A stretch of DNA of 64,000 nt from a virus (IMGVR_UViG_3300017971_002799:1-64000), one strand, 5' to 3'. Counted from the first letter of the stretch, positions 32,873 through 57,718 are shown. Made by a program: numbers and translations. The notes: generated by a model not told the origin, from the sequence alone.

Positions 32873-33554
32873 AGTAAACGAAGTTTTTTACTCCATTCAG
32901 GGAGAAGGTCTCACTGCAGGCGAGCCTACAATCTTTGTCAGACTTCAAGGGTGTAACTTAAAATGCAAGTACTGCGATACCACTTACGCACAAAACGGCG
33001 CTAGGGGTCTTCTTATAGGTACAGACGAGATCGTTAACTTGGTAAAGTCCCGATCAGAAAATAGTGTAATCGGAAAACGCTGGGTTTGTATTACCGGCGG
33101 CGAACCTCTCAAACAAATGATAGCGTTAGGGAGTCTAGTTCCTAAATTAAAGAAAGAAGGCTTCCTTATTGAGATAGAAACAAACGGGACTTATCTAAAA
33201 CCCTCCTGGTTTAACACTATCGACTCCTGGGTAGCTGATATAAAGTGTCCCTCTTCTAACTACTCCCCAACTGAAGGCATGATAACACTTTGGTTAAACA
33301 GTAGAGAACAAGATCAAGTAAAATTCGTTGTGGATAGTCATGAAGATCTACGCTTCGTAAGAAGACTACTCACAGAAGGATTTAACAACCGAAAGTACTT
33401 CAAGCCCAAGATACTGGTTAGTCCAGCTGCTAACGAGGATGCAGAGTTTAATCGAGACTGGATGGAAGAGGTCGTCGAGTTCTGTAAAGAATTGAACATT
33501 CGATTTTCTTTACAGATACATAAACTCATTTGGAAAAATAGAATAGGAGTTTAA
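32841..33554 (+). CDS. queE: 7-carboxy-7-deazaguanine synthase QueE (radical SAM)
   Basis: [32 protein letters not shown] (CxxxCxxC); GGEP motif; size 237 aa. Confidence 0.85.
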
Positions 33555-34831: not shown

Positions 34832-35329
34832 ATGAAGTTTAAACTCACAATAGACATGATCCCCGCTTGTAACTGGGGTGAGAATCTGCATAACTATCTC
34901 GACGCTCCAATCTGGGATTCTGTTAGAAGAGAAGTCTATACTCACTTCAATCTTAGATGTGCAATCTGTGGCGCATCAAATACAAAACTACACTGTCATG
35001 AAGACTGGGATATCAATGACAAGAAGTGTGCCCAAAAGCTTAGAGGCTTTCTCGCTCTCTGCGAAGATTGTCATAACGTAAAACATTGGGGGAGAACCAC
35101 AGCTGTTATAGAACAAGGGAAGTTAGATCCCTATTACAAAATAACTCTAACTAAACACTTCTGTCGAGTCAACGATTGTGGCACAAGTGATTTTGAGAAA
35201 CACGCCGCAGAAGCTAGATCTAAATGGTCTTTTAGAGCAAACAGAAGATATAAACTGAACTGGGGCAAGTTTAGTCCCGATAGAATAACAAGGGAGTATA
35301 TGAAACAAAATGCTAAGCGAAAACGCTAA
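34832..35329 (+). CDS. HNH endonuclease-like protein
   Basis: CAICGASNTKLHCHEDWD...CEDCHNVKH (HNH His-Asn-His with zinc cysteines). Confidence 0.5.
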   Translation: MKFKLTIDMIPACNWGENLHNYLDAPIWDSVRREVYTHFNLRCAICGASNTKLHCHEDWDINDKKCAQKLRGFLALCEDCHNVKHWGRTTAVIEQGKLDPYYKITLTKHFCRVNDCGTSDFEKHAAEARSKWSFRANRRYKLNWGKFSPDRITREYMKQNAKRKR

Positions 35330-37361
35330 AGATCTACTGAAAAGAAAATACTGTGCACCAGGAGAAGACTTTACAGACCTCTGTAAACGAGTCGCTACAC
35401 ATATCGCTCAAGCTGAAGAAGAAGGCAAGCGAGGATACTGGGAGCAATCCTTTTTCGACATTCTCAGCCATTTAGAGTTTCTACCAAACACTCCTACACT
35501 TGTCAATGCAGGAAAAGGAACAGGTCAACTATCTGGCTGTTTCGTTGTTCCTATAGAAGACTCCATCGAAGGAATCTTTGAAGCGATCAAGCATACAGCT
35601 ATGATACATAAAAGTGGAGGCGGAACAGGTTTTTCCTTTTCTCATATAAGACAGAAGGGAGCAGAGACCAGTAACGGGATAGCGAAAGCTGCTGGTCCAA
35701 TTGCTTTCATTGATGCCTTTAATACTTCTGTGGGAGCAGTAACTCAAGGTGGAAATAGGCCTGGTGGTAATATGGCTATTCTATCTGTAAATCATCCAGA
35801 CGTCATGGACTTTATAGAGGCGAAGAGAGTTGAGGGCGTTCTTAGTAACTTCAATCTGTCTGTCGCAATAACAGACGAGTTTATGAAAGATGTTGAATAC
35901 GATAGAAAGTCAGACCTGATAGATCCTCATACAGAATTGTTATACGATAGAATAAACGCAAAAGATCTTTTCGAGTCTATAGCCAAAGAGGCTTGGGAGA
36001 AGGGTGATCCTGGTGTAGTCTTCATTGACAGAGTAAACGCAGACGATCCAACTCCTTGGCTAGGACCAATTGAAGCTACTAATCCTTGTGGCGAGCAACC
36101 GCTACATCCTTTCGAATCTTGTAACCTCGGATCGATAGATCTAAGTAAATTCATTATTGAACGAGACCGCGACTTTGATTGGGTGCGTCTACAAGTTGCA
36201 GTACGAACAGCTGTAAGATTCCTAGACGATGTAATTGATGTAAACGTTTATCCTCTTGACATAATAGCTGAAACCACTAAGAATACCCGTAAAATTGGTT
36301 TAGGCGTTATGGGCTGGGCAGACGCTCTTATCAAGATGGGTATAATATATGATAGTGAAGAAGCTCTTAAACGTGCTGAGTTCGTAATGAGATTCATCCA
36401 AAGTGCAGCACATGAATACTCAATAGAGCTCGCAGAAGAAAAAGGAGCTTATCCAGCTTACATTGAGGATACGAGAACATTTCACAATCCTGAACAAGTG
36501 CAAAAGCCGCAGAGAAACGCCTGCGTTACAACAATAGCGCCGACGGGAAGACTCAGTATCATAGCTGACTGCTCAGGCGGAATTGAACCTATTTGGGATA
36601 TAGAGTTCCCTAGAACCCAAGCTGGAGAAACTGTTATAGACAAACATCCTCTTTGGGGTCACTATGACATTGAACTCTTTAGAAAAGCCCTCGAGATACC
36701 TTGGGAGTGGCACGTTAAGATGCAAGCAGCTTTCCAGAAGCATGTTGACAACGCTGTTTCAAAAACAATCAACCTCCCCAATGAAGCTACTTGGGAAGAT
36801 ATTTTGGGAGCATACTCACTCTCATACGAACTCGGCTGTAAAGGCGTTACTGTATATCGAGACGGCTGCAGAGATTTTCAAGTATACGGAACGAGAAGTC
36901 CCGAAGAAGAAGCGAGAAGTCGAAAGAGGCCGTCAGTAACATTTGGTACCACAGAAAGCATTCCTATAACCTGTGGTAAATTATACGTCACAGTTAACCA
37001 AGACGGACAAGGTATCTGTGAAGTGTTTGCTTCTCTAGGAAAGTCAGGTGGCTGTATCAATGCTCACCTTGAAACGATTGGGAGACTTGCATCTAACTCT
37101 TTAAGGAGTGGTGTTGCTATTGATCAAGTTATTAGAACGCTAAGCGATGTGAGATGCCCCAAACCTAGTTGGCATCAAGGTGTTAACCTTACATCGTGTA
37201 TTGACGCTATAGCTTCCGTACTGAGAGCCAGAGCCAATCTAGCTGCCACAGGTGGGAATACTAAACAAATCACTGGACAGTGTCCCATCTGTAGTGGGTT
37301 GTTGGTTCATCAAGAAGGATGCGATATTTGTCTCTCCTGCGGCCACTCAAGTTGTGGATAA
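35310..37361 (+). CDS. nrdJ: Ribonucleotide reductase class II (adenosylcobalamin-dependent, NrdJ)
   Basis: N-terminal LEFLPNTPTLVNAG...CFVVPIEDS; active-site NPCGEQPL; C-terminal zinc-ribbon CPICSG...CDICLSCGHSSCG. Confidence 0.8.
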   Translation: MLSENAKDLLKRKYCAPGEDFTDLCKRVATHIAQAEEEGKRGYWEQSFFDILSHLEFLPNTPTLVNAGKGTGQLSGCFVVPIEDSIEGIFEAIKHTAMIHKSGGGTGFSFSHIRQKGAETSNGIAKAAGPIAFIDAFNTSVGAVTQGGNRPGGNMAILSVNHPDVMDFIEAKRVEGVLSNFNLSVAITDEFMKDVEYDRKSDLIDPHTELLYDRINAKDLFESIAKEAWEKGDPGVVFIDRVNADDPTPWLGPIEATNPCGEQPLHPFESCNLGSIDLSKFIIERDRDFDWVRLQVAVRTAVRFLDDVIDVNVYPLDIIAETTKNTRKIGLGVMGWADALIKMGIIYDSEEALKRAEFVMRFIQSAAHEYSIELAEEKGAYPAYIEDTRTFHNPEQVQKPQRNACVTTIAPTGRLSIIADCSGGIEPIWDIEFPRTQAGETVIDKHPLWGHYDIELFRKALEIPWEWHVKMQAAFQKHVDNAVSKTINLPNEATWEDILGAYSLSYELGCKGVTVYRDGCRDFQVYGTRSPEEEARSRKRPSVTFGTTESIPITCGKLYVTVNQDGQGICEVFASLGKSGGCINAHLETIGRLASNSLRSGVAIDQVIRTLSDVRCPKPSWHQGVNLTSCIDAIASVLRARANLAATGGNTKQITGQCPICSGLLVHQEGCDICLSCGHSSCG

Positions 37362-37603: not shown

Positions 37604-38317
37604 ATGGATATAGCAACAATAGCACCAAAGTCTCTCCTAAGTTTATGCGAGTTAACAAAACTACAATTATGTTACGCTGAGTTGGCTCTCAAGGACAATG
37701 AATATAGAAAGTTCTACCAAAACGTTAAAGGTATCGTTGTCTTAGACCACTCGCCAAGGATACCTAGAAAATCTCTTTCGGAAGAACACTTCCTGGAAGC
37801 AATTGAATTAATCAATCCAAATGTAATAATCTTACCAGACGTAGATTTCTCGGCTGGTACTACGGTGTCAAAATCTCTAAAACTCCTTCAGAGTATCGAG
37901 CCAAAACGTCGGGATCGCTGTGTTGGAGTATTACAAGGAACGAACTTCAAGGAAATAAAAGAGTGTTACAAAACTTTCAAGAGGCATTGTGGGATCATAG
38001 GACTAGCTTCCTCCGCTGAGAAGGTAATGCCTAGAAAACAAATAGCTGATAAGCTTAAGATAAAGAAGCTTCTCCTTTTGTTAGAAGTATTTTCAAACCC
38101 TGTTGACGAGCTCATAACCGACGAAAGATTGTTAGGAATTTGTACCTCGTATCATATACGTTTAGCTGCAGAAGGGCGTACTCTAAAAAACTACACACCA
38201 ACACCTAAACTACTCGATTTTTACGTAGACTACGAAATGCATTACGCTCTAGCAGAGCATAACCTGCAGACATATAAAAAACATTTTAAGAAGGAGATAA
38301 ATCGTGAAACTAGATGA
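37604..38317 (+). CDS. TGT-family DpdA-like protein (paralog 2)
   Basis: Aligns with ORF 28010 (L..D.EY.K.Y...LD.S....EA...I.P.VI.PDV; CVGVLQGTNFKEIKECYKTFKRHCGIIGLASS vs ILPILQGDSHDVATDCAWEIHKMGFNKLAIPYS). Confidence 0.4.
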   Translation: MDIATIAPKSLLSLCELTKLQLCYAELALKDNEYRKFYQNVKGIVVLDHSPRIPRKSLSEEHFLEAIELINPNVIILPDVDFSAGTTVSKSLKLLQSIEPKRRDRCVGVLQGTNFKEIKECYKTFKRHCGIIGLASSAEKVMPRKQIADKLKIKKLLLLLEVFSNPVDELITDERLLGICTSYHIRLAAEGRTLKNYTPTPKLLDFYVDYEMHYALAEHNLQTYKKHFKKEINRETR

Positions 38318-39864: not shown

Positions 39865-40040
39865 GTAAAGGCTACACAGAACCAATACCTATAATAGTCG
39901 CAATAATTGTAGGAACTCTTATCGCTTCAACAATAAATCTAGCCTCACAAGGAACCTACCTTGCGATCGTTCCCGCAATCACTGCAACCATAGCTTTAGG
40001 AATGTATGTATATCACTTAAGGAGAAAGCTGCGTGATTGA
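39861..40040 (+). CDS. small membrane protein (59 aa)
   Basis: Not in the ORF track; MSKGYTEPIPIIVAIIVGTLIAS...AIVPAITATIALGMYVYHLRRKLR; overlaps the polymerase start. Confidence 0.35.
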   Translation: MSKGYTEPIPIIVAIIVGTLIASTINLASQGTYLAIVPAITATIALGMYVYHLRRKLRD

Positions 40041-42414
40041 CCTAAGACTTTGCAATTGTGAAGAGTGTCCTCTATTCGGCTCCGGTATGGTTGTTACCAG
40101 ACGACCTTTTATATCTCCATACAATGTGATATACAAAGCAGTTACACGCAACAACGTTTTTCTGCAGCACTTTCGGATAGCTGAAGTCGAAGAGATCGAC
40201 CCTGTAGAAGTTCTTCTTATTGGAATGGCCCCCGCTTATGAAGAACTTCGCCAAGGAGATTTCTTTGTAGGCCAATCGGGTTTGCTCCTCAATGCTGTTA
40301 TGGGACAGTTAGACTACGATAGCTACGCTGTCTCTAACGTTTTGCTTTGTAGAATACCTGAAGAAGCTACACAATCTGAAATAAACAAAGCCGCTGATTG
40401 TTGCTTTCCAAGGCTGGAAGCTCAAATAAAGGAGTACCAACCAAAGTTATTAGTTGCTTTGGGAAACCTGCCTTTACACACTCTAACAGGTTTAAACATA
40501 GGTATAATGACGGCCGAAGGAAGGGTTCTCCCCAGTGACTATGGAGACGTTCTCGCAGTACAACACCCTGCAGCTGTTTTAAGATTTCCAGACAACTACC
40601 CAGACTTCCTAGAAGCTTTAAAAGGCGGTCTCAGATGGAAGTATGGAACTTACAAACAAATCACAGACGAACCTAATACTGTAGTTGTCGATGAAAACAA
40701 TATGGCCGATGTTTGTCAAAGAATCGAAAACGCCGGACTGGCAGCTATAGATCTCGAAACAACTCGTACAGGACTTAACCCTTATGGCCGAGAGCCTGAT
40801 GGTATTCGTTGTATGGCTATCACAATCGAACCAACGACAACATATATAGTACCAGGAGAAAGCTCTCCATACTGGCCTGAGCACCCTAACTTCATAAATC
40901 ATCCTGCTTTGATGGAAGTTATTCCTAAAGTTAAAGGTGTTTACCACAACGGACAATTTGATTGTGCTTTCATGTGGCAGACTGGCTATCGAAACAAAAT
41001 GTATTACGATACGATGATAGCACATCAAATAATGGATGAGAGGCCGAGATCCCATGGTTTGAAGGTATTAGCAAGAAAGAGATTGGGAGCGCCTGACTGG
41101 GAACATGATATAAAAAGGTATTTGCCTACTGGGAAAAGTAGTTATGACCTAATCCCCGACGACGTGCTCTATAGATATGCCTCTTTCGATACGATAGCCA
41201 CATATTTACTCTATCAACAATTCGAATCGGAAACTCGAGGGACGTTTTTCGACAAGTTCCTTATGAGAGCCGCTAACATGTTTGTAGATCTTAGGCACAC
41301 GGGAATTCGAATAGATCCTTGGGTTCTCATGCAAGCTGATGAGCTACTGGAGCAAGATCTGGACCAGAAAATAAAAGAGCTTTACGAAATCATCGGCCAT
41401 TATATAAACCCTCTGTCGTGGGCACAAGTTGCTGAACTACTGTACGATGAATTAGAACTACCACAAATAGCTGGACGTTCAACATCGGTTGACATACTTA
41501 AGAGATTACCTTATCATCCCGCTATAGAAAAGATTATAGAAATTAGACAGGCATCCAAGTTACGTTCTACTTACGTTTTATCTCTAATAGGGTTTATGGA
41601 TAACGATTATAGAGTACATCCAACAATCAAACTAGCAAGCACTGTAACAGGGAGAGCTTCGTCTGAAGATCCCTCTGTCATGACAATTGTGAGAAACAAT
41701 AACATCAAAAAGATGTATCTGCCCGAAGACGGTTCTCTCTTTATGGAAGCTGATGCAAAGCAGATGGAAGTAAGATGGTTTGCTATTTACAATCAAGACG
41801 AGGTGTTAAGAAAACTCTTAAACGAGGGCGACCCTCATGACATGATTAGAAAGCACATCTTAAAACTCACAGGGAAAGATTACCCAAGAGTGAGAGTAAA
41901 AGGTGCTGTTTTTGGTAAGATGTATGGCCGAGGAATTGATTCCTTCATGGCTGAATTTGGTGTACCTGCAGATGAAGCACAAGAGATCATTAATGGTATA
42001 ACAGAATTACTACCTACACTAAAACAGTACAACGATAGAATCGAGCACGATATAAAAACACTCGGTTACTTAACCAGCTACTTCGGAAGAATAAGAAGAT
42101 TCGGATTGTTAACGAAACGATCTTTTTATGAAGCACTCAAACAGGGAGTCAACTTTCCAATTCAATCAGCTGCCTCAGATACTAACTTATGGACGATGGT
42201 TCATCTCTATGAGAATGCTGATAAGTTTGGTATAGTGCCGCACTTCCCAGTTCATGACTCTGTTATCATGAGTATACAAGACAAGGATATGGTTCCGCTT
42301 GTGAAGAAGGAAATGGAGACCTTTAGTCAGGAAATTGTTAACAACGAAATGGAATTCGACATTGAAGTTAAAATAGGCCCTAACTGGGGCGAAACAAAGT
42401 TGTTAGAGGTATAA
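40033..42414 (+). CDS. Family A DNA polymerase with 3'-5' exonuclease and N-terminal UDG-family-4-like domain (catalytic Glu replaced)
   Basis: N-terminal LLIGMAPAYEELRQGDFFVGQSGLLLN (UDG4 GEAPGxxExxxGxPFVGxAGxLL, with E->M) and QHPAAVLR (UDG motif B). Exo I AIDLETT, Exo II YHNGQFDCAF, Exo III YASFDTIATY. Pol motif A EADAKQMEVRW, motif B RVKGAVFGKMYG, motif C VHDSV. Confidence 0.85.
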   Translation: MIDLRLCNCEECPLFGSGMVVTRRPFISPYNVIYKAVTRNNVFLQHFRIAEVEEIDPVEVLLIGMAPAYEELRQGDFFVGQSGLLLNAVMGQLDYDSYAVSNVLLCRIPEEATQSEINKAADCCFPRLEAQIKEYQPKLLVALGNLPLHTLTGLNIGIMTAEGRVLPSDYGDVLAVQHPAAVLRFPDNYPDFLEALKGGLRWKYGTYKQITDEPNTVVVDENNMADVCQRIENAGLAAIDLETTRTGLNPYGREPDGIRCMAITIEPTTTYIVPGESSPYWPEHPNFINHPALMEVIPKVKGVYHNGQFDCAFMWQTGYRNKMYYDTMIAHQIMDERPRSHGLKVLARKRLGAPDWEHDIKRYLPTGKSSYDLIPDDVLYRYASFDTIATYLLYQQFESETRGTFFDKFLMRAANMFVDLRHTGIRIDPWVLMQADELLEQDLDQKIKELYEIIGHYINPLSWAQVAELLYDELELPQIAGRSTSVDILKRLPYHPAIEKIIEIRQASKLRSTYVLSLIGFMDNDYRVHPTIKLASTVTGRASSEDPSVMTIVRNNNIKKMYLPEDGSLFMEADAKQMEVRWFAIYNQDEVLRKLLNEGDPHDMIRKHILKLTGKDYPRVRVKGAVFGKMYGRGIDSFMAEFGVPADEAQEIINGITELLPTLKQYNDRIEHDIKTLGYLTSYFGRIRRFGLLTKRSFYEALKQGVNFPIQSAASDTNLWTMVHLYENADKFGIVPHFPVHDSVIMSIQDKDMVPLVKKEMETFSQEIVNNEMEFDIEVKIGPNWGETKLLEV

Positions 42415-43329: not shown

Positions 43330-43980
43330 GTGATTAAAGGAGAACTAAAACCAATCACAATAAAGGCTTTCGATCTGTCACAAGCTTTCTACAGATGCTG
43401 CAAGTCAATTCTCGTAGAAGGATTTGACTACAAAATCGATAAGGGAAGCTCTGAAGGAAGATTTAGAAAAGAGTTTGACTTCGTGACCATCCAAATATCA
43501 AGACCAGACGCACGACCTCTGTATCCTGATATTCCAGATGGTATACCTTCTCCCTGTAACATGAGTCAAATAGAAGATTACATGGACTATCTCATAACTC
43601 CTACTAAACAGGAGAACGAACAATATACCTATGGAGAGTTTATACATCACCAAATACCCACAGTAATAGAGAGATACAAAAGAGACGGTGAAGGTTGCAA
43701 TCAGCTTTACATGACTATAGGAGATCAATACTCAATGCAAATGCCCGATCCCCCTTGTCTCAGAGGGATAGATACACGAATAAGATATGGAAGATTACAC
43801 TTCATGGTATACTTCAGGAGTTGGGATCTCTGGGCGGGTTTTCCAGTCAACCTAGGGGGCATACAACTCTTAAAAGAGTATATGGCTAACGAAATTGGGA
43901 TTGAAGATGGTGAACTCATTGCCTGTAGTAAAGGACTTCACTTATATGATCACTGTTGGGAACTAGCGGAGGCTTTGTAA
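43330..43980 (+). CDS. Thymidylate-synthase-family enzyme (short; ThyA / pyrimidine hydroxymethylase-like)
   Basis: PDPPCLRGI (ThyA PPCH nucleophile region); LHFMVYFRSWDLWAGFPVNLGGIQLL (ThyA QFYVxxxxLSCQLYQRSxDxFLGxPFNIASYALL); GELIACSKGLHLYDHCWE (ThyA GDFxxxxGDTHLYSNH). Confidence 0.6.
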   Translation: MIKGELKPITIKAFDLSQAFYRCCKSILVEGFDYKIDKGSSEGRFRKEFDFVTIQISRPDARPLYPDIPDGIPSPCNMSQIEDYMDYLITPTKQENEQYTYGEFIHHQIPTVIERYKRDGEGCNQLYMTIGDQYSMQMPDPPCLRGIDTRIRYGRLHFMVYFRSWDLWAGFPVNLGGIQLLKEYMANEIGIEDGELIACSKGLHLYDHCWELAEAL

Positions 43981-44061: not shown

Positions 44062-44661
44062 TTGCAAATAATGGACATCATTCCTTATGGGAAAAAGTAT
44101 CCAGACGTTACTAAGCTACTATATGACAAAGGCTATCTAAGGAGATATCCAAAACAACACAAAAGAGATGATCTACAGTACGACGATGGCATAGACATTG
44201 TCTACGATCTGAAAAACCTACCACCTGCAAAGTTTACGGAAGCATCTGACTTGTTACTACTAGCTGCCTATACAGAAGCACAAAGATATAAAGACGCTAC
44301 GTACAAATTCGCAAAGTTCATGGTGCACCTCAACAGAACAGCGCAAGGGAAAAAGCAGGTAAAGAAAGAAAGAGGTTATATAGCAAGTAGACATCGCGAT
44401 CCTGAAATCATGGTATACGGAGAACAAGGTCTTGGATACGAACTACCGGAAGAAGAGAAAAAGCCTTTCTTGATCAACAAAGTACAAGAGATACTAGGAA
44501 TTCCCGATAGCCCTAGCCCTGGTCCTTATGTCAAAAAACAACAACCATATAAAGTAATCAGACTAACAATTGGAATCAGAGCTGGCAAGATGTGGGAAGG
44601 TGTTCCAGGTCTTCTTATTCCTGGTGTGACTAATGTTAGCGAAGAAGCTACAGAAGAATGA
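44062..44661 (+). CDS. hypothetical protein; candidate terminal (priming) protein for the adjacent PolB
   Basis: The stop overlaps the PolB start (gaagaATGAaagg) and the protein is Lys/Tyr/Ser-rich. There is no sequence-level proof; the call rests on synteny with protein-primed replicons. Confidence 0.3.
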   Translation: MQIMDIIPYGKKYPDVTKLLYDKGYLRRYPKQHKRDDLQYDDGIDIVYDLKNLPPAKFTEASDLLLLAAYTEAQRYKDATYKFAKFMVHLNRTAQGKKQVKKERGYIASRHRDPEIMVYGEQGLGYELPEEEKKPFLINKVQEILGIPDSPSPGPYVKKQQPYKVIRLTIGIRAGKMWEGVPGLLIPGVTNVSEEATEE

Positions 44662-46391
44662 AAGGAATAGCAACCTTTGACATCGAGGCGGTAGCATGGG
44701 ACCAACCTATCGCTGTTGGCTTCTACGATGGAGAAAAGTATTTCGAGTTCCTTAAGATTAATGAAGATCACGATGTTATTGGTAGTTTCCTCGACTTCCT
44801 AAAGGTAAACTACCAAGGAATAAGAATCTACGCTCACAACGCTGGTGAGTATGATAACAAATTCATACTCCAAAGTCTACATCGTCGAGGTCAACGTGTA
44901 GCTATGAGTTTGGGTCAAGCCAGGCTTGAGTGGCTAGGTTTGCATATAACATTCGAAGACAGCTACCTAATGCTAAGTAGAAGACTGAGCGCTATCTGTT
45001 ACGCCTTCAATATCCCTATGAAACTAGACTGGGATCACTCTCAAACGAAGAACATTTGGGAGATGGGTGATCTAGAAGAGTTTAGAGCCTACCTGAAAAG
45101 AGATTGTGTATCTCTATCTGAAGCCATAGCAGCATATGCACAAGAACTCATCAGCAAATTCGGGGTTGCCCCCTCTACAACCATGGCTCTGACATCAGTA
45201 AAGGCCTTCAATAAAAGATTCTATCCCGTTAGTAAAATAAACGCTAACTTCGAATACGAAAACAGAATTAGACAAGCAACCTTTGGAGGGCGAAACGAAG
45301 TATATAACAAACATGGCTTAGGTATTTACTTTTACGACGTTAGAAGTATGTACGTATCTTGCTATGATACACCTGTTCCTATAGGCAAAATGTCTTGGAC
45401 TTCAAACGAGTTAGAGAAAGGAACAGTAACAGAGGCTATTGTAAAAGTTCCCACTTGGATGAACATTGGGCCTCTTCCCTATAGATATAGACCTTACAAC
45501 AACAGTGGATACGGACATTTAATGTTTCCAGTAGGAACTTTTCCTGGCGTTTGGGATACCATTGAACTAATGAATGCTGTAAATCTAGGTTGCGACGTTA
45601 CAGTTATAAAACAACTAGCCTGCGAAGAATCTCCCATACTAGACAAATTTGGAAAATACATTGCATACCTAAGAGAACAAGCAGAGAATGAAGAAAGAGA
45701 AAGAATCTGGAAAAACGTTGGTGTGCGATTAAGTGGAAAGTTTGGACAGCATCGTATCATGCAGGAGATTAAGCACGCAACAGAGATAGAGGACTATGAA
45801 GGTTGGTGTGCTATAGATGACGACGAAATATACTTCGAAAGAATGGTAGCAAAAGACCCAAAAGGATCGCCTTACATCAAGCCAGCCGTTAACATGAGAG
45901 TAAGATCAGAAGCCAGGATAAGACATCTACGAAAATTGCTTGAAGCAGAAGATAAAGGAACATTATACTATTGCGACAACGACTCCGTTTGCTCTAGTAC
46001 GCCTTTATACAATGGAAGGAAGGCTGGGGAGTTGCAGCTCTTAGACTACGCTAAAGAAGCTTTCTTTATTAGATGTAAGTTCTACGGTTACCTAAACAGA
46101 AAAGGACACCTGAATCAAAGAACAGCAGGATATAGGGATTTTAAATTAACGGAACAAGACTTCAGAGATCTGCTACAGGGAAAAACCTTGTACAATACCT
46201 TCCAAAGTCTCAGTCACTGGAAAAGTTCTTTAACAGAAGAAGGTGTAAAGATGATCGACCGTAGCAGGTCAGTAGCGATGTCTAGAGGGTTTGACAATAG
46301 AGAGTCAGTGGGATTGAAGACCCGCCCTATAGAGTTAGGTATGAAGGATGGTGAAGTGTTTAGAGTTAAAAGAAATGAGGAGAAAGAGTAG
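44658..46391 (+). CDS. Compact family B DNA polymerase of phi29/protein-primed type (577 aa)
   Basis: Exo I FDIEAV, Exo II YAHNAGEYDNKFIL (phi29 YHNLKFDGAF), Exo III YLKRDCVSLSEAI (phi29 YIKNDIQIIAEAL), motif A FYDVRSMYVS (DxxSLYPS), motif B KNVGVRLSGKFGQ (KxxxNSxYG), motif C YYCDNDSV (YCDTDS). Confidence 0.65.
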   Translation: MKGIATFDIEAVAWDQPIAVGFYDGEKYFEFLKINEDHDVIGSFLDFLKVNYQGIRIYAHNAGEYDNKFILQSLHRRGQRVAMSLGQARLEWLGLHITFEDSYLMLSRRLSAICYAFNIPMKLDWDHSQTKNIWEMGDLEEFRAYLKRDCVSLSEAIAAYAQELISKFGVAPSTTMALTSVKAFNKRFYPVSKINANFEYENRIRQATFGGRNEVYNKHGLGIYFYDVRSMYVSCYDTPVPIGKMSWTSNELEKGTVTEAIVKVPTWMNIGPLPYRYRPYNNSGYGHLMFPVGTFPGVWDTIELMNAVNLGCDVTVIKQLACEESPILDKFGKYIAYLREQAENEERERIWKNVGVRLSGKFGQHRIMQEIKHATEIEDYEGWCAIDDDEIYFERMVAKDPKGSPYIKPAVNMRVRSEARIRHLRKLLEAEDKGTLYYCDNDSVCSSTPLYNGRKAGELQLLDYAKEAFFIRCKFYGYLNRKGHLNQRTAGYRDFKLTEQDFRDLLQGKTLYNTFQSLSHWKSSLTEEGVKMIDRSRSVAMSRGFDNRESVGLKTRPIELGMKDGEVFRVKRNEEKE

Positions 46392-46688: not shown

Positions 46689-46847
46689 TTATCCTTTCTT
46701 TCCGCCAGGCTTACCGCGCTTGTAACCGCTTACCTTGACAGTTTTGTTACCACGTTTGTAAGAGAAGCCCTTAACAGAAACGGCACTGCCTCGCTGCTTT
46801 CCCTTCATTTTACCCTTCGGTAACTTTTTCTTCGGTTTCGTAGCCAT
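46689..46847 (-). CDS. small highly basic KG-rich protein (52 aa)
   Basis: Not in the ORF track; SD aggaggtattttctaATG; MATKPKKKLPKGKMKGKQRGSAVSVKGFSYKRGNKTVKVSGYKRGKPGGKKG. Confidence 0.5.
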   Translation of the reverse strand: MATKPKKKLPKGKMKGKQRGSAVSVKGFSYKRGNKTVKVSGYKRGKPGGKKG

Positions 46848-46892
46848 TAGAAAATACCTCCTGTTAGATTATAGAACCCTCGAGGGGAGAAT

Positions 46893-47387
46893 TCACTTAG
46901 TCTTCCATCGTCCTTCCTTCTGCATGCGGCTCTTAATCCTCTCAGCTTTACCAGCGCCGAGGTACTTCGAAGCCATGCTAAAGTTGTCCTTAACCATACT
47001 CTCTTCCATGTTCTTCCGTTGCTGATAAGCCTGCTTGGCGTAATTCTGACGATAAGCCTTATCTTGCTCTTCAGTACGTTTTGGACCGCGCCTTCGAGGA
47101 GCAAGCCCTACTTTCTCCAGCTCCTCTCGTTCTTTCTCACGCTTCGCTTTAGCTCTTGCAGCCTGGGCAGCTTTACGCTCAGCTTCCGAACCATACTTTT
47201 TCTTAGTACCCTTCATTCCGGTAATGCGAAGAACTAACGCGCCCTTCTCCTTCTTGTCAAGGTTCTTAGCCTTCTTACCCAACACGATATCCGCAACACT
47301 AACCTCTTCAGGCCCGCTGCCGATATCAATCATGGCCGTCATCTCCATGATCGAGGGATCAAATTTTGGTGCTAACTCCTTAGACAT
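46893..47387 (-). CDS. basic Lys/Arg/Ala-rich protein
   Basis: ORF track; AQAARAKAKREKEREELEKV low-complexity basic region. Confidence 0.5.
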   Translation of the reverse strand: MSKELAPKFDPSIMEMTAMIDIGSGPEEVSVADIVLGKKAKNLDKKEKGALVLRITGMKGTKKKYGSEAERKAAQAARAKAKREKEREELEKVGLAPRRRGPKRTEEQDKAYRQNYAKQAYQQRKNMEESMVKDNFSMASKYLGAGKAERIKSRMQKEGRWKTK

Positions 47388-47388
47388 T

Positions 47389-47661
47389 TTAGACTACCTC
47401 CGATAGAACTTTCTCTAACTCATTAACGGGTTGGTGCCCGTTCTTTTTGCTTTGAATAAACTCCTTCATCAAACGTTCAGGCAGATCGTTGAACTCTCCA
47501 ACGTGATAAAGCTCTTCCTTACTAACCTTCTGCACTCGAAGAAACTTCTGACCTTTCGACTTCATCTTCTTTTTCTTGCCGTTCGTAAAAACGAGTTTTG
47601 ACTTAACACCCTTGTCATCCTTAAATCGAACCCTTAAAGTTAAACCTCTTCCTTTACCCAC
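47389..47661 (-). CDS. small basic protein
   Basis: MGKGRGLTLRVRFKDDKGVKSKLVFTNGKKKKMKSKGQKF. Confidence 0.5.
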   Translation of the reverse strand: MGKGRGLTLRVRFKDDKGVKSKLVFTNGKKKKMKSKGQKFLRVQKVSKEELYHVGEFNDLPERLMKEFIQSKKNGHQPVNELEKVLSEVV

Positions 47662-47676
47662 GAAACCTCCTTCAAA

Positions 47677-49293
47677 CTAAAAGGGCCTTATTCTCCTACT
47701 AAAAGGAGACATCCCTCTAACTCCCCAAGGCATTCTAGTAACACCCATAGCACCAGAAGGAACAGATCCAACAGGGCTAGGAGTAACTCCAGGTTCAGTC
47801 AATTCTCTTAAATGAGCAAGTGGAGCAACTGTTGTTGGTCCGAAAGCTGGTGTCGGCACCGTAGCACGAGCTAAAGCGCCCATCGGTTGTATTTCTTCTG
47901 GGTGTATATAAGGACCAGCCAAAGTACTACGTCCTCTCTGGAAAGCACGAGGACCGGTCCTAACTGCTTGCGCAGTAGCTGTTGGTAGAGTCTGAGCAGC
48001 CCACTTTGAAGGCTCCTTGATCATCTTCTCAGTAACTTCAAGGGCTGTTTTATATTTAGGAGGTTCAAGCTTTCTCATCTCCCTTTTATGCTTAGAAACT
48101 TCAACCTTTAACTCTGCTAAGGATTTTGGTCTACCACCCTCAACTTTCCACTTATAAACAGTAGGAGCGTTGGGATCTTTCTCCCTAGCACTCTTAGTAG
48201 CCTCAACATCCTTAACTCTTTTCTTCTTAGAAGCATGGTAAAGGGAAATACCTAAACTCATCGCTTCAGATTTAACCTTCGGCAAATCTTTTTGGTATGC
48301 CCTTTCGAGTCTCTTAATATCTTTCTCTTGAAGACCTTCTGTCATCTCTGCTAAGAGCTCTCTTCGCTCTGCTCCAACTCTTGCTTTTGTTTCCTCAGAA
48401 GGTTTTCCTCTTAACTCTTCAGTAGTTTTCTCCCAACGAGCCCGCTGTTCAGGGCTACCAGCATACTCACCAAAGAGAGCGTAACCCTGTTCTTTTCGCT
48501 TCATCTCTTCAGCTTCACGTCTACGCTGAGCTTCAGCTCTTGCTAACTGTCTCTCCTGAAAAGCTCTTTGACCTCTTTCCCGACCTCTTTCTGCAAGACG
48601 TTGCGCGGTACCGTAAGCTTCTCTAACAGTAGGACCTCTACCAGTCGTCCTTTCTCGAAGATGTCCTAGAGATTCTCTAACACTCCTACGCTCTCGAGGC
48701 TCATCAGTTACATCTCTAACAACTACAGCAGTGGTCGGTCTTTCCTCTGTAACCCTCGGCTGAGCAACTACCATAGGCAAAGCTCTACCAGAAGTAGGCT
48801 CGGTATGAACGGTGGGTCGAGCACTAGGAACTTCCGTTACAGCTTCAAGCTCGGCTTCGCCTCCAGGGATTTCAACAGTGCGGCCAAAGGGCTCCTCAAT
48901 CTTCATAGGAGGTAATGTCCTAGAAGGAACGCCAACTTCTTCAACGACAGCCTCCTCTAAAACATCTTCATCCTCTTCGCCTTTCTTCTTTCGAGCGATC
49001 TTATCCTTAATCCACTTTATGGGATTAAAGTTATGAGCACGAACAACGGCCTCCCAACCGCCAGCAGGTGAAGGCTGTACGGACATTATCTCAACTTGAT
49101 CCAAACCAGCATCAAGGGCAAAACCCTGCATCTTGGTAATAATACCCATTACCTGATCAGCAGAGTTGCCGCGAACAATAGCAGTTACACCTCTGCCACC
49201 ACTCTCACGAGTCACGCCTCCACGAGTAAAGGTTTTCTTTGGAGCACCGTGAGGCTTACTGGTTTTCTTTTTCGTTACTCTCTTGTTAGCCAT
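47677..49293 (-). CDS. large charged coiled-coil protein with basic N-terminus (function unknown)
   Basis: Basic N-terminus MANKRVTKKKTSKPHGAPKK; central Arg/Glu-rich heptad region; Pro/Gly/Thr-rich C-terminus. Confidence 0.55.
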   Translation of the reverse strand: MANKRVTKKKTSKPHGAPKKTFTRGGVTRESGGRGVTAIVRGNSADQVMGIITKMQGFALDAGLDQVEIMSVQPSPAGGWEAVVRAHNFNPIKWIKDKIARKKKGEEDEDVLEEAVVEEVGVPSRTLPPMKIEEPFGRTVEIPGGEAELEAVTEVPSARPTVHTEPTSGRALPMVVAQPRVTEERPTTAVVVRDVTDEPRERRSVRESLGHLRERTTGRGPTVREAYGTAQRLAERGRERGQRAFQERQLARAEAQRRREAEEMKRKEQGYALFGEYAGSPEQRARWEKTTEELRGKPSEETKARVGAERRELLAEMTEGLQEKDIKRLERAYQKDLPKVKSEAMSLGISLYHASKKKRVKDVEATKSAREKDPNAPTVYKWKVEGGRPKSLAELKVEVSKHKREMRKLEPPKYKTALEVTEKMIKEPSKWAAQTLPTATAQAVRTGPRAFQRGRSTLAGPYIHPEEIQPMGALARATVPTPAFGPTTVAPLAHLRELTEPGVTPSPVGSVPSGAMGVTRMPWGVRGMSPFSRRIRPF

Positions 49294-54218: not shown

Positions 54219-55439
54219 TTATGCTTGTAAAGAACTTTTCTTAAAACCCTTACCAACATAATTACTCCTATACCTAATCCATTTGGGAGTTAACTGCTTA
54301 TCCTTAATCTCCAAAGCTACTAACCCAAGTAAAGCGAAGTAAAAAGGCATCCACAGATTAAACCACCACCAATCGGCGCTCCCAGTAGCAGACATGATAA
54401 AGATAGCAAGTAATGCATATCTGTATCTCTTACTGTGGTAAATAGCAACAAGTGTAACAAACAACCAGGAAAGAGCAGCCACCACTCCCATATTGTCAAG
54501 TAATACCAGAGGAACATTATGTAAATTTATACCATATCTGTTAGACTGCCCATGAAGACCTCCATCTTCATCTTTTTCCAAATCCAATCCGTGTCCCACG
54601 AAACTAAAGTTCCGTAAAGCCTCTCCATTAGCATCAAGCCTCGTATTCAAGGACTGTGCTCCCCTCAAGCTACCCTTTTCCCAAGCATCCTGAACCTGAT
54701 TCACTTGCCAAACTCTCTCTTGTATACTAGTTGAGGAAGCAACAACCACGACTAGGAGTAAAACAAAACATCCGAGGGTTGTTAAGAACTTCTTGCTTAA
54801 ATTTACTTCTTTCTTCACTAAAGCAATAAAGCCACAACCCACTAAGGCCATTAAGGCCCAGTACGAACCCGTAAAGAGTATTGTTATCATAGCAGGAAAC
54901 GCTAACCACTTCCACCTACCTCCCAATAGAAAAATACAAACTACAAGTATAGAAGCTACCTGATCGGTGTTCTCAGAAAAACCGGTTGCCCTCGCTATAA
55001 AAGCCTCATGCTCAAGTAGTCTGTTAACACCATCCCACATTACACTTGCACTGAGAATCATAATTATAGGAACAGCAAACCAGGTTAAGTTATATCCCTT
55101 GCGCATCGAAGCTAGATAAAGTAAGAACATAAAAGTAAGTGTGACGAAGTAAAATATACCAATACTCAAATCATCGTCTAGAAAAATCCACATAAAAGAT
55201 GAAGCCACGATTAAGAGTAACGGTATATAAACTACCTTTGGACCAAAGGACAGCTCCTTCCTCTTAAACCATAGTGTTCCGAATACTCCTGCAAAGAAGA
55301 GCATAAAAGCCAATACAGTGGACGAACCCGTTCCCCAAGGCATTCCTCTAAAAGACAGAAAGACGAAACCAATTATCATATACAATAAAAGAAAGTCAAC
55401 CTTCCTGCCAAATAACATCTTACCCTGATTCTTTTCCAC
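54219..55439 (-). CDS. O-antigen ligase/polymerase-family (Wzy_C-like) polytopic membrane protein
   Basis: About 10 TM helices and a large loop with VGHGLDLEKDEDGGLHGQSNRYGINLHNVPLVLLDNMGVVAAL (Wzy_C GxG...H.HN..L..L.E.G..G). Confidence 0.5.
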   Translation of the reverse strand: MEKNQGKMLFGRKVDFLLLYMIIGFVFLSFRGMPWGTGSSTVLAFMLFFAGVFGTLWFKRKELSFGPKVVYIPLLLIVASSFMWIFLDDDLSIGIFYFVTLTFMFLLYLASMRKGYNLTWFAVPIIMILSASVMWDGVNRLLEHEAFIARATGFSENTDQVASILVVCIFLLGGRWKWLAFPAMITILFTGSYWALMALVGCGFIALVKKEVNLSKKFLTTLGCFVLLLVVVVASSTSIQERVWQVNQVQDAWEKGSLRGAQSLNTRLDANGEALRNFSFVGHGLDLEKDEDGGLHGQSNRYGINLHNVPLVLLDNMGVVAALSWLFVTLVAIYHSKRYRYALLAIFIMSATGSADWWWFNLWMPFYFALLGLVALEIKDKQLTPKWIRYRSNYVGKGFKKSSLQA

Positions 55440-55692
55440 TTGTAAGACTCCTCCTCGCTCTTCTACTCAGTTTCCAACCTATGTAACCCAAGCAACCACC
55501 GATCACTGATATCGCAAAGAGCCACAACCACGTCTTATTAGAATAAGTAGTCCACAACCACTCATCCCACTCGAAATCACCTCTCAACAGACGTCGACTC
55601 TCTGTCCCAGCAAGAGTTAAGACTATTACTGTAAGTACTGGCATCAGTAAGATCAAAAAACATCGGATCCTCTCGCTCCATGTACGCAACAT
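55420..55692 (-). CDS. small membrane protein (overlaps 3' end of the next ORF by 116 nt; boundaries uncertain)
   Basis: Two TM helices. Confidence 0.35.
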   Translation of the reverse strand: MLRTWSERIRCFLILLMPVLTVIVLTLAGTESRRLLRGDFEWDEWLWTTYSNKTWLWLFAISVIGGCLGYIGWKLSRRARRSLTSGKESG

Positions 55693-57154: not shown

Positions 57155-57718
57155 CTAAATCTGCAAACCCTTTAACTGTTCGACAAAAGGTGTTTCGGTA
57201 TCGCTTCCTTCCTCGGGCATTAAACTAACCTTAAGAAGTTTCCTCTGTTCTGTAAGATCTACAACAAAGGTTTTCCTTCTACTGAATCTTCTTTCATGCG
57301 CATCAATTACAGACGTAAAAGGTTTTATACCCAATCTACACTCAATAAGGACATCACAAGAACGCCGAATCCTCTTATCTATGTGATAAAACTCGTTCGC
57401 ACCTATTAGCACGATATTATCACGAGTCCGGGAAGTAACTGTAAAATAAGTAAACAACTTATTGAGCTTACCCATCACGTTCCTGGAGTCAAAGAATGCG
57501 TACGCTCTATTCAAGCAGACACACGAATTACATATTCCATCCCCTTCAAGTACCTCCACTAACACATCCGCATCGAAAATCTCGGAGCCTTCAAAAGCAA
57601 ACTCATCTTGTGCCCCAGCGTAGTAAAGTGTTCTACCACCGTCCATCTCTTCTTTAGCCAAGTAGGCTAGGTACTCCCTTGCACCCGAGTAATCATGACC
57701 CACAACAGCTGCAATCAT
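57155..57718 (-). CDS. Zot-like NTPase paralog with degenerate Walker A
   Basis: Shares FFDSRNVMGKLNKLFTYFTVTSRTRDNIVLIGANEFYHIDKRIRRSCDVLIEC with ORF 58991 (LLDSRNSVGKINKLLTYFVVQTRKRNVDLYVCTHHIDHVDKRLRRAVDIRGTC) but lacks GxxGKS. Confidence 0.4.
   Translation of the reverse strand: MIAAVVGHDYSGAREYLAYLAKEEMDGGRTLYYAGAQDEFAFEGSEIFDADVLVEVLEGDGICNSCVCLNRAYAFFDSRNVMGKLNKLFTYFTVTSRTRDNIVLIGANEFYHIDKRIRRSCDVLIECRLGIKPFTSVIDAHERRFSRRKTFVVDLTEQRKLLKVSLMPEEGSDTETPFVEQLKGLQI

Follow-up and report, generated by a model that had tools for sequence, protein, structure and literature searches.

Results

A widespread, uncultivated and so far undescribed lineage of large (~80–115 kb), probably linear dsDNA viruses carries a family B DNA polymerase of the protein-primed type (pPolB) beside a canonical family A polymerase (PolA), linearity being taken from the agreement of left ends between assemblies of the genome to which the window belongs. 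Genome size in this lineage is well above the <50 kb range reported for viruses using the pPolB class. The window, meaning the whole stretch of 64,000 nucleotides that was analysed, belongs to a genome assembled at 87,777 nt (JGI 3300028840, Ga0309773_1000552), 87,771 nt (ENA ERZ27256783, k141_2502037) and 87,816 nt (ENA ERZ27256798, k141_2096736).

Identification of a compact family B DNA polymerase

For characterization of the ORF beginning at position 44658, a combination of profile searches, an AlphaFold (AF2) model, Foldseek and hhalign was used. A previous sequence-only reading had described this ORF as a phi29-type compact pPolB bearing six hallmark motifs and preceded by a candidate terminal protein gene. 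Both ORFs are real, and all six motif strings could be found in the 577-aa translation. The features of the polymerase are as follows.

44658–46391, plus strand: pPolB, protein-primed-type family B DNA polymerase, 577 aa (PF03175, AF2 model, Foldseek, hhalign)
Residues ~1–190: pPolB exonuclease domain
45336–45359, plus strand: pPolB motif A
45369–45635, plus strand: pPolB TPR1-like insertion
45711–45746, plus strand: pPolB motif B
45753–45860, plus strand: pPolB TPR2-like insertion
45969–45986, plus strand: pPolB motif C
46077–46085, plus strand: pPolB KxY
46155–46388, plus strand: pPolB thumb, beta-rich

The 577-aa ORF matched Pfam PF03175 (DNA_pol_B_2) with an E value of 2.9e-34 and 119 bits, against a cut-off of 25.8 bits, and phrog_1907 ('DNA polymerase') with an E value of 3.7e-25; the family match is far beyond chance. 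PF03175 was likewise carried by all 120 of the 120 listed pPolB homologues. Foldseek searches with the AF2 model (pLDDT 93) returned phi29 DNAP as the best match over the full length (E 4.7e-24, TM 0.69–0.70), whereas TM values against archaeal RNA-primed PolBs were 0.35–0.42 (~0.38). No match to the Pfam families of RNA-primed PolBs, PF00136 and PF03104, was seen for pPolB. Membership of the RNA-primed group, the outcome that the earlier reading had set against itself, thus did not hold, and the hallmarks of that group (a large N-terminal domain, a helical thumb and absence of TPR insertions) were not found in pPolB.

By hhalign, pPolB aligned with the PRD1-type PR5 P1 polymerase at 99.3% probability (E 2.5e-20, 432 columns) and with the phi29 polymerase at 87.5% (E 3.6e-6). 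Sequence searches of the PDB, using either pPolB alone or a 34-sequence profile, found no polymerase; the phi29 likeness came from the fold search. Exo I–III, motifs A and C and KxY of phi29 all align with pPolB, as do equivalents of TPR1, TPR2 and the small thumb, at an identity of only 15–16% in the structural alignment. For the TPR1 region, the hhalign alignment was unbroken between phi29 261–358 and pPolB 238–326, which were modelled at high confidence. For TPR2, pPolB 366–401 aligned to phi29 398–420, with 10 additional residues in pPolB, and the AF2 model places a beta-hairpin at residues 367–398 (strands 367–373 and 392–398). The check for both insertions proposed in the earlier reading therefore came out positive in hhalign to phi29 and in the model, and pPolB is predicted to contain TPR1- and TPR2-like insertions.

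Exo I (FDIE) occupies residues 7–10, Exo II (YAHNAGEYDNKFIL) residues 58–71, Exo III (YLKRDCVSL) residues 145–153, motif A (DVRSMYVS) residues 227–234, motif B (KNVGVRLSGKFG) residues 352–363 and motif C (YCDNDS) residues 438–443. Across 34 homologues of 43–57% identity, residues D8, E10, D66, Y145, D149, D227, K352, K361, D440, D442, K474 and Y476 were invariant or nearly so. Motif B retains K352, G360 and K361 and has V, R and S at the positions of phi29 N387, S388 and Y390; this deviation from the canonical Kx3NSxYG counts against a protein-primed reading. The corresponding motif in PR5 is KLILNSSYGKFAQ. Judged by its residues and its model, the 577-aa ORF is an intact compact family B polymerase of the phi29/PRD1 class, predicted to be functional, as the earlier reading had held. 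A pseudogene or relic was considered and rejected, because the catalytic residues are kept across the 34 homologues. The context of pPolB, on a large and probably linear viral contig and lacking a neighbouring integrase, does not resemble that of the piPolBs in pipolins.

The upstream partner protein p22

Translational coupling of the two genes, as previously proposed, is borne out by the sequence, where the pPolB start codon (ATG, 44658) and the stop codon of the preceding gene (TGA) are interlocked in an ATGA. The upstream ORF, read earlier as 199 aa from a TTG, exists; its start is most likely the ATG at 44071 and not the TTG at 44062. This ATG is preceded 8 nt upstream by an AAGAGG Shine–Dalgarno sequence, and public gene calls likewise give 196 aa.

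44071–44661, plus strand: p22, conserved basic partner protein, 196 aa (listed from TTG 44062 in the sequence-only reading)

The suggestion that this protein is conserved was upheld, since a p22 homologue lies directly upstream of pPolB in 7 of 9 relatives and 2–3 kb upstream in the other 2. Its proposed likeness to known terminal proteins was not: p22 has a compact ferredoxin-like alpha/beta fold, and neither sequence nor fold similarity could be detected to the terminal proteins of phi29 (which is helical and unrelated to p22), Bam35 or PRD1-type viruses, nor similarity to any viral protein in BFVD. A priming Ser, Thr or Tyr had also been anticipated, yet no such column was strictly invariant among 38 diverse representatives. 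The best-conserved tyrosines are Y6, within the N-terminal coil, and Y73, each kept in at least 90% and replaced in 1–2 of the 38; S152, part of an SPSPG motif, varies. The terminal-protein gene lies directly 5′ of the polymerase gene in the records of phi29, Bam35 and PR5, and p22 occupies the same position in the same orientation. p22 is thus a candidate terminal protein, chiefly by where its gene lies; alternatively, it may be a DNA-binding accessory protein or SSB.

These observations bear on whether protein priming takes place at all. pPolB could instead be a DNA-primed, strand-displacing enzyme serving repair or recombination-dependent synthesis, perhaps on DNA that carries 7-deazaguanine modifications, with p22 as an SSB-like or processivity accessory. 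Such an arrangement would agree with the missing invariant hydroxyl residue in p22, with the non-canonical motif B of pPolB and with the location of p22 between two polymerase genes, from which it could serve either; a preQ0 pathway plus SSAP, nuclease and resolvase genes are also present in the genome. Characterised members of the class with both TPR1 and TPR2 are, as established knowledge has it, all protein-primed (PMC4889955), and what looks like a linear genome with fixed ends would pose an end-replication problem needing some solution. We therefore regard DNA-primed synthesis as rather unlikely and retain p22 as the candidate terminal protein in what follows.

A three-gene module with a family A polymerase

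The presence of a PolA in the same genome, noted earlier, was confirmed as a full-length fusion of UDG-like, 3′-5′ exonuclease and PolA domains upstream of p22. A second PolA-like sequence reported near the left end is also real, as a short remnant on the opposite strand. These and two neighbouring ORFs are listed below.

40033–42414, plus strand: 793-aa fusion of a UDG-like domain, a 3′-5′ exonuclease and a family A DNA polymerase, first module gene
1359–1568, minus strand: PolA remnant ORF, 69 aa, O-helix-like motif B REIGKTVNFGRMYG, precomputed PF00476 hit
37604–38317, plus strand: conserved 237-aa protein, tblastn matches in related loci L003, L010, L011, L012, L013 and L014
46391–46585, plus strand: Cys-containing ORF, 64 aa, GTG start overlapping the pPolB stop by one base

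Pfam matches of the fusion were PF00476 (E 2.8e-57), PF03167 (E 1.8e-16) and PF01612 (E 1.4e-12). Throughout the lineage the fusion keeps Exo I–III and polymerase motifs A, B and C (HDS), and homologues of 36–51% identity were found in 9 of 9 related loci. The closest known proteins are the UDG-fused PolAs of Bacillus phages, at ~26–28% identity.

Considering only those loci with enough upstream DNA (n = 9), UDG–exo–PolA, a p22 homologue and pPolB co-occurred in all nine, and their identities to the window co-varied across loci (r 0.91–0.95). Because the three genes stay together in every locus examined and diverge together, the module is, by these sequence comparisons, ancestral to the lineage and vertically inherited. 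The suggestion of a captured linear-plasmid or polinton-like module does not survive this result. Recent acquisition of pPolB and its upstream ORF from a linear plasmid or a tectivirus-like or polinton-like element, by a phage replicated by PolA, would have some appeal given that small linear plasmids and tectivirus-like elements typically carry pPolB genes, and that the annotated relatives nearest to this pPolB come from tectiviruses, Bacillus linear plasmid-prophages, autolykiviruses and Methanosarcina spherical virus. Identity to these relatives is only ~23–29% (~25–29% for the nearest plasmid and phage polymerases), however, whereas more than 190 homologues (counted as sequence clusters) lie at 43–57% identity, the longest of their contigs reaching 115 kb, and in every locus examined pPolB keeps company with the same PolA and p22. 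GC content near pPolB is not atypical, and the gene is flanked by neither an ITR-bounded insert nor an integrase. Recent capture is accordingly highly improbable. Strict co-conservation of a replicative-type PolA with pPolB would be odd if pPolB did everything.

The plus-strand block ends with the 64-aa ORF, immediately ahead of the strand switch; this ORF gave no family match and had no homologue in related loci at E 1e-4, and is probably outside the conserved module. The 237-aa protein is usually found between ribonucleotide reductase and PolA in relatives and had no match in Pfam, PHROG, NCBIfam or PDB. A promoter and terminator scan around the module gave counts equal to the shuffled expectation.

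Genome ends and form

To place the window within its genome, its left end was compared with the three public assemblies.

1–230, no strand: left terminal region, non-coding (public contigs reach 23–48 nt further left)

The first base of the window lies at contig position 49 (JGI), 46 (ERZ27256783) and 24 (ERZ27256798), so that the left ends of the three assemblies agree within 3–25 nt, in the same orientation. The JGI contig begins 5′-GGGGAGTGATCTAGACG, and one ENA contig begins 3 nt further in. Near-coincidence of the left end in three assemblies is suggestive of a linear genome, and this end looks like a physical terminus. The PR5 genome starts with GGGGA, like the JGI contig. The left terminal region showed neither a hairpin-like nor an array structure. 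A 39-aa ORF at 197–316 was found at the left end only, so any inverted terminal repeat, the chief genomic hallmark of protein priming, would be shorter than ~360 nt. In the relative L012, a 40-kb contig that is probably a fragment, an exact 36-mer of the contig end occurs at that end only, and a degenerate array motif was not found at the opposite end.

Contig sequence was followed rightward to position 69,707 of ~87.8 kb. A partial 171-aa protein from 69 kb gave nothing in a homologue search. The longest-ORF starts (TTG) of two genes differ from the public calls, and one of the two genes runs off the window. At 87.8 kb, and up to 115 kb in relatives, these genomes depart from the small size (<50 kb) and short list of replication genes of protein-primed replicons, which is a correlate of the class and not a defining feature.

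Other genes of the genome

Genes for nucleotide metabolism and replication include ribonucleotide reductase, a thymidylate synthase-like protein and a helicase-like protein. Typical bacterial-phage genes are present in the window (the UDG–PolA fusion, RusA and LuxR-type HTH proteins). On the minus strand a morphogenesis gene was identified, with a paralogue nearby.

58991–59659, minus strand: pI/Zot-like morphogenesis ATPase, 222 aa, without transmembrane segment (PF05707, E 1e-4, above cut-off)
57155–57718: ATPase paralogue

The best matches of the 222-aa ATPase in a virus collection were the AAA+ ATPase of Lokiarchaeota virus WyrdV1 (31% identity, E 1e-9) and that of Muninn virus, a likeness to spindle-shaped viruses of Asgard archaea. 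No capsid or terminase gene was recognisable in the 70 kb examined, and with this the lineage merits description. An HMM built from three sequences gave no credible match to a His1-like capsid protein, nor was a double-jelly-roll capsid module recognised. A crAss-like phage was considered and rejected, as no structural gene had a PHROG match.

Among window ORFs of at least ~120 aa and the precomputed annotations (64 of 88 kb), no primase or DnaB-type helicase was recognised, in keeping with pPolB systems, which work without either (PMC4889955); the 24 kb beyond the window may carry a gene for a primase, helicase or terminase. Recombination genes are present in the form of Rad52-like, RusA, Cas4-like nuclease and UvrD-like helicase sequences. 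These could support PolA-driven synthesis, and they raise the alternative that PolA replicates the genome from an internal start, using host or recombination primers, while pPolB and a terminal protein would do no more than fill the 3′ overhangs at the telomeres. The PolA is of replicative type, with 3′-5′ exonuclease, polymerase and conserved motifs, and is strictly co-conserved with pPolB; moreover, the 88-kb genome exceeds the <50 kb limit of full protein-primed replication (PMC4889955). Precedent may be found in Streptomyces linear replicons, for which terminal-protein-primed patching after internal initiation is described (PMC3273824), although the patching enzyme there is not a pPolB. 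End-patching is also at odds with the retention by pPolB of TPR2 and a whole proofreading domain, traits of a processive replicase and not of a short-patch enzyme, and with the lack, in 64 of the 88 kb, of any recognised primase or replicative helicase and, inside the window, of any origin-like iteron array or tandem repeat. Restriction of pPolB to the telomeres is thus considered improbable.

Proposed replication mode

We favour a reading in which the genome is replicated by protein priming from its ends and PolA plays a secondary part, a proposal that we would put at about evenly balanced. pPolB would start DNA synthesis at the linear genome ends from the hydroxyl of a protein primer, for which the translationally coupled p22 is the positional candidate. 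It would then copy the genome by processive strand displacement, requiring neither helicase nor primase, on the model of PRD1, phi29 and spindle-shaped viruses of archaea. Secondary synthesis by the UDG-fused PolA may consist of gap filling linked to uracil, of recombination-dependent synthesis or of converting the displaced strand. A dual or alternative replication mode, as suggested in the sequence-only reading, is plausible.

Reports of protein-primed replication are limited to genomes <50 kb, and the mode is described as self-contained, in genomes with no other replicase (PMC4889955). If pPolB primes at the ends, the lineage would show protein priming scaling to large genomes, with two replicases sharing the work; if p22 primes at the telomeres and PolA does the rest, the <50 kb ceiling of protein-primed replication would be broken. 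A more elaborate proposal is possible but doubtful: that these are large linear viruses (80–115 kb), possibly giant relatives of spindle-shaped archaeal viruses, with an obligatory two-polymerase replisome in which pPolB acts at protein-capped telomeres, p22 represents a new terminal-protein family priming via its near-invariant N-terminal tyrosine, and the UDG-fused PolA makes the remaining genome. The lineage may yield a new family of terminal proteins, as well as a new polymerase capable of strand displacement, whose nucleotide-binding motif B is unusual.

Comparison with known viruses and replicons

The best sequence matches of pPolB were the polymerases of the tectivirus group (tectiviruses PRD1, Bam35 and AP50, an autolykivirus and Methanosarcina spherical virus), which belong to the same Pfam family, PF03175, and share 23–26% identity over ~75–85% of pPolB. 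They are similar in size (553–577 aa), with the Bam35 enzyme longer, and in tectiviruses a small lineage-specific gene lies directly upstream of the polymerase on the same strand, as p22 does here. The genomes differ: those of the tectivirus group are 10–15 kb with ~30 genes and a single polymerase, in contrast to ~88 kb and an additional PolA in this virus. phi29, the closest by fold, is a 19-kb tailed phage. Chaacviruses were considered as large pPolB viruses and rejected, their genomes being 10–11 kb.

Two polymerase families occur together in the barbaviruses and similar Caudoviricetes, in which PolB and a divergent PolA are found in one genome of 80–105 kb (PMC11348598). The likeness lies in the combination of families A and B in one large viral genome. 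The barbavirus PolB is RNA-primed, serves as the replicase and is embedded among replication genes, whereas the PolB described here is of the protein-primed class; their PolA is divergent, truncated and variable in its neighbourhood, whereas this one is canonical and syntenic with PolB. In a survey of 18,382 tailed-phage genomes, two polymerase families were found together in only two genus-level groups, neither of them with a pPolB (PMC11348598). Among cellular replicons, protein priming and a family A polymerase coexist on the large linear replicons of Streptomyces (PMC3273824). Telomere patching in that system employs terminal proteins with Pol I or translesion polymerases and involves no pPolB, and nothing homologous to the Streptomyces telomere proteins could be recognised in this virus.

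A further set of similarities is with spindle-shaped archaeal viruses. In Muninn virus, WyrdV2/3 and the halspiviruses, linear genomes and terminal inverted repeats go with pPolB, although the genomes are at most ~20 kb and lack PolA. The Muninn virus pPolB itself is only ~24% identical to that of the window over 435 residues. Typical bacterial-phage genes stand beside archaeal-virus-like features, so that the host may be archaeal or bacterial; relatives of the window virus have been binned with archaeal MAGs. Gene layout is shared with Muninn virus, in that a plus-strand block ending in pPolB is followed by a convergent block that, in both, encodes the ATPase together with small hydrophobic proteins and large proteins of membrane or adhesin-like type. 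The pI-like ATPases of Muninn virus and the wyrdviruses, which have no transmembrane domain, are the closest to that of the window, and WyrdV1, like the window, encodes a carbohydrate O-methyltransferase.

Polymerase gene and catalytic motifs

The polymerase gene and the ORF directly upstream were both found where the sequence-only reading had placed them, and all of the protein-primed PolB motifs that it had cited were present in the 577-aa translation. The described overlap of start and stop was also recovered, the ATG of the polymerase (pPolB) and the TGA of the upstream ORF forming ATGA.

44658-46391, plus strand, pPolB, 577 aa
pPolB residues 7-10, Exo I, FDIE
pPolB residues 58-71, Exo II, YAHNAGEYDNKFIL
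pPolB residues 145-153, Exo III, YLKRDCVSL
pPolB residues 227-234, motif A, DVRSMYVS
pPolB residues 352-363, motif B, KNVGVRLSGKFG
pPolB residues 438-443, motif C, YCDNDS
pPolB residues 474-476, KxY motif, KFY

In a 34-homologue profile of proteins that are only 43-57% identical, both active sites keep their catalytic residues invariant or almost so, and pPolB is therefore under purifying selection. Motif B reads K-x3-V-R-L-S-G-K-F-G against a family consensus of KLFGLRLSGKFGQ, with substitutions for Asn, Ser, and Tyr of the canonical Kx3NSxYG.

Assignment of pPolB to the protein-primed class

An HMM search bore out the proposed class, with pPolB matching Pfam DNA_pol_B_2 (E 2.9e-34) as well as PHROG family phrog_1907. 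Among 50,697 phage and virus records, only protein-primed polymerases were matched, at ~23-30% identity; these came from tectiviruses, autolykiviruses, Methanosarcina spherical virus, and one archaeal virus, and the plasmid matches were Bacillus tectivirus-like linear plasmids. The 34-homologue profile aligned with the PRD1-type P1 polymerase over 432 columns (probability 99.3%, E 2.5e-20) and, using hhalign, with phi29 polymerase (probability 87.5%). A plain sequence search of the PDB with pPolB gave no match. The AlphaFold2 model was very confident (pLDDT 93, pTM 0.90), and its nearest structures were nine chains of phi29 polymerase, aligned over the whole length with TM 0.66-0.72 and E down to 4.7e-24, whereas RNA-primed archaeal PolBs reached a TM of only ~0.35-0.42.

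The TPR1 and TPR2 insertions are the defining features of protein-primed PolBs, and the hhalign alignment with phi29 spans both without large gaps: TPR1 corresponds to pPolB residues 238-326 (phi29 261-358) and TPR2, a beta-hairpin in the prediction, to residues 366-401 (phi29 398-420). The model also has a small beta-rich C-terminal thumb, as in phi29. By every feature testable here, pPolB belongs to the protein-primed PolB family, in which it forms a clade of its own, marked by the non-canonical motif B.

PolA, p22, and pPolB across the lineage

An identical pPolB protein was encoded on three separately assembled ~87.8-kb contigs, and a search of 5.8 billion protein clusters returned at least 190 homologues. 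The 120 matches listed all carried PF03175, were at least 43% identical, and lay on contigs of up to 114.6 kb. Ten related loci were gathered from metagenome assemblies, IMG/VR, and GTDB genomes, nine of them with enough upstream DNA for the genes before pPolB to be compared. In all nine, pPolB (42-57% identity to the window's protein) is encoded together with a homologue of p22, the protein of the upstream ORF (35-57%), and a full-length fusion polymerase, PolA (36-51%).

40033-42414, plus strand, PolA, family-4-like UDG domain, 3'-5' exonuclease, and family A polymerase

The order PolA, p22, pPolB is contiguous in six loci; PolA is separated from p22 by other genes in locus L004 and in the window, and p22 lies 2-3 kb upstream of pPolB in L003 and L011. 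In every locus that reaches past pPolB, the plus-strand block ends with this gene and is followed by a convergent minus-strand block, except in L012, where a ribonucleotide reductase gene follows on the same strand. The exonuclease and polymerase motifs of PolA are conserved lineage-wide.

Identities of the three proteins to those of the window co-vary among loci (r 0.91-0.95), indicating that PolA, p22, and pPolB have been inherited together since the origin of the lineage. The presence of two replicative-type polymerases in one genome, read as unusual from the sequence, is therefore real and a conserved lineage trait. The accompanying suggestion of a captured linear-plasmid or polinton-like module is contradicted by this joint presence and co-divergence, and recent capture of a pPolB module is very improbable.

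Protein-primed systems have been reported only in genomes below 50 kb with few replication genes (PMC4889955). In a set of 18,382 Caudoviricetes genomes, only two genus-level groups had two polymerase families per genome, in each case an RNA-primed PolB combined with a divergent PolA (PMC11348598). No description of a lineage with PolA and pPolB was found in the limited library searched, where absence of evidence is all that can be claimed. The genomic context of this pPolB is new, namely its setting beside PolA on lineage contigs of up to 114.6 kb; the pPolB family itself was already known.

The PolA remnant that had been noticed near the left end was recovered as a 69-aa ORF at 1359-1568 (minus strand) with an O-helix-like motif B. 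Its motif, REIGKTVNFGRMYG, differs from that of the resident PolA, RVRVKGAVFGKMYG, and the ORF is apparently a fragment derived from a second PolA unlike the resident one.

The upstream protein p22

The most likely start of p22 is the ATG at 44071, preceded by the ribosome-binding site AAGAGG, which gives a protein of 196 aa, a length on which public gene callers agree. The gene is real: p22 has 27 close homologues, and a profile search of 1.84 billion cluster representatives collected 45 members, all stand-alone proteins of 59-263 aa. The family is basic (median pI 9.1), and in the model (pLDDT 81) a compact beta-alpha-beta-beta-alpha-beta sandwich is followed by a disordered C-terminal tail. 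Foldseek comparison of this model with predicted viral structures found nothing (best E 0.015), and profile comparison with the phi29, Bam35, and PRD1-type terminal proteins was null.

Of the proposal that this protein is a terminal protein, the conserved gene in the position upstream of pPolB stood, and similarity to known terminal proteins did not. As to a conserved priming Ser, Thr, or Tyr, Y6 (N-terminal coil, motif K/R-P-Y) and Y73 (R-Y) occur in at least 90% of 38 diverse representatives, in whose alignment no residue is strictly invariant, and conservation does not extend to the Ser of SPSPG, another motif of p22. The gene position, which is that of the terminal-protein genes of phi29, Bam35, and the PRD1-type tectivirus PR5, the translational coupling to pPolB, and the co-evolution of the two proteins count for such a role, as does the general lack of conservation of terminal proteins from one virus group to another. 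Against it count the non-helical fold, the want of an invariant hydroxyl residue, and a gene equally adjacent to PolA. A terminal-protein identity for p22 is tentative, the weight lying somewhat on the other side. The alternative that pPolB is DNA-primed and non-telomeric, with p22 an SSB-like or accessory factor, is itself unlikely.

Replication genes and proposed mechanism

Replication genes were surveyed among window ORFs of at least about 120 aa together with precomputed annotations. Recombination and nuclease genes comprised a Rad52-like annealing protein, RusA, an HNH endonuclease, a short UvrD-like helicase, and a Cas4-like nuclease. Genes for ribonucleotide reductase, for a thymidylate-synthase-like protein, and for a protein with a BRCT domain were also identified. 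The survey, which covered the 64 kb of the window and reached contig position 69,707 of the ~87.8-kb genome, gave no primase, no DnaB-type helicase, and neither clamp nor clamp loader. Replication by pPolB works without helicase or primase (PMC4889955), and the gene set fits such a mode and fits poorly a T7-like PolA replisome.

The genome thus encodes a pPolB that is intact and has both TPR insertions, together with a PolA and a small basic partner inherited along with it. We consider the chances evenly balanced that pPolB would initiate at the genome ends on a protein primer and then replicate the genome via strand displacement, with PolA performing secondary synthesis. A division of work in which PolA would carry out bulk synthesis and pPolB would only patch telomeres, on the pattern of Streptomyces telomere patching (PMC3273824), is improbable. 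The remaining weight falls to unforeseen arrangements.

Genome ends

Position 1 of the window corresponds to positions 49, 46, and 24 of the three ~87.8-kb contigs. The JGI contig starts at its 5' end with GGGGAGTGATCTAGACG, and one ENA contig begins three bases further in. Circular or terminally redundant genomes usually break at arbitrary positions on assembly, so the common left end favors a physical terminus, and the viral genome is probably linear. Inverted terminal repeats, if any, cannot exceed about 360 nt. At its left end, 48 nt upstream of window position 1, the JGI contig reads GGGGAGTGATC, and the PR5/PRD1 genome begins GGGGATACGTG. PRD1-type initiation involves sliding back on a terminal CCCC template; as only the GGGGA start is shared, the likeness may be coincidence.

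In locus L012, positions 18833-19350 (contig positions 1-518 of IMGVR_UViG_3300011013_002204) hold a 36-nt periodic array of at least 14 copies of GAGTGAACC-N9-GAGAGTAyC-N9, which runs to the contig end 7 kb downstream of the L012 pPolB. The motif is also arrayed, often internally, on further IMG/VR contigs as long as 122 kb, and does not occur in this window. Possible roles for the array are iteron, origin, or telomere binding.

Virus type and host

Among the large proteins encoded on the minus-strand right arm, none matched PHROGs or Pfam capsid, portal, or terminase families. Also encoded there are several proteins of 683-1003 aa that are secreted or anchored in membranes, numerous small hydrophobic proteins, GT-C-type membrane glycosyltransferases, and two related ATPases.

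58991-59659, minus strand, pI/Zot-like ATPase without transmembrane segment (PF05707)
57155-57718, minus strand, paralogue of the pI/Zot-like ATPase

The only significant matches of the ATPase in the virus collection were the morphogenesis ATPase of WyrdV1 (a Lokiarchaeota virus), a Muninn virus region, and an inovirus assembly protein. In the spindle-shaped archaeal viruses to which wyrdviruses and Muninn virus belong, the morphogenetic module combines this ATPase with an adhesin and a His1-like capsid protein, and pPolB is accompanied by terminal inverted repeats on linear genomes. Muninn virus shares the window's layout, a plus block closing with pPolB and then a convergent morphogenesis block. 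No His1-like capsid protein was detected in this virus with a three-sequence HMM. The 70 kb examined held no recognizable capsid, portal, or terminase gene, so this virus may have a membrane-associated or spindle-like virion; that it is a giant relative of spindle-shaped viruses is a lead, not a result.

The three relatives found in GTDB genomes had been binned with Bathyarchaeia, Woesearchaeota, and Thermoplasmatales MAGs, and the 216-aa thymidylate-synthase-like protein (43330-43980) best matched the methanogen/archaeal model TIGR03283 (E 4e-27, below cut-off). These two observations are further pointers to a possible archaeal host, notwithstanding the phage-type PolA. Pointing the other way are genes more usual in bacterial phages, those for the UDG-PolA fusion, RusA, and regulators of LuxR type.

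Other genes of the window

A complete-looking preQ0 (7-deazaguanine) synthesis set is encoded at 25057-25749, 26084-26677, 31858-32253, and 32841-33554, comprising QueC (E 4e-65), GTP cyclohydrolase I, a QueD-type 6-pyruvoyl-tetrahydropterin synthase, and a radical-SAM QueE-like protein. Together with a weak, sub-threshold DpdA match of a 243-aa protein (28010-28741), these genes suggest 7-deazaguanine modifications in the viral DNA. At 34832-37361, a ribonucleotide reductase gene with a TSCPD domain follows directly on a gene for an HNH endonuclease, which overlaps its start.

Just past the strand switch, at 46689-49293 (minus strand), are genes for four K-, R-, and E-rich proteins of low complexity (52, 164, 90, and 538 aa), very basic or charged and partly conserved in relatives, which may be DNA-condensing or nucleoprotein components. 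The window also carries an unusual load of membrane and glycosylation genes (11704-14597, 16149-17884, and 54219-57034 on the minus strand), including an SPFH/Band-7 protein, GT-C-type membrane proteins (Wzy_C-like and TMEM260-like), and a sugar O-methyltransferase; the membrane protein beside the SPFH/Band-7 gene resembles NfeD by reading, not by database match. A single tRNA-Met (CAT) is located at 23807-23881 in the plus-strand early block.
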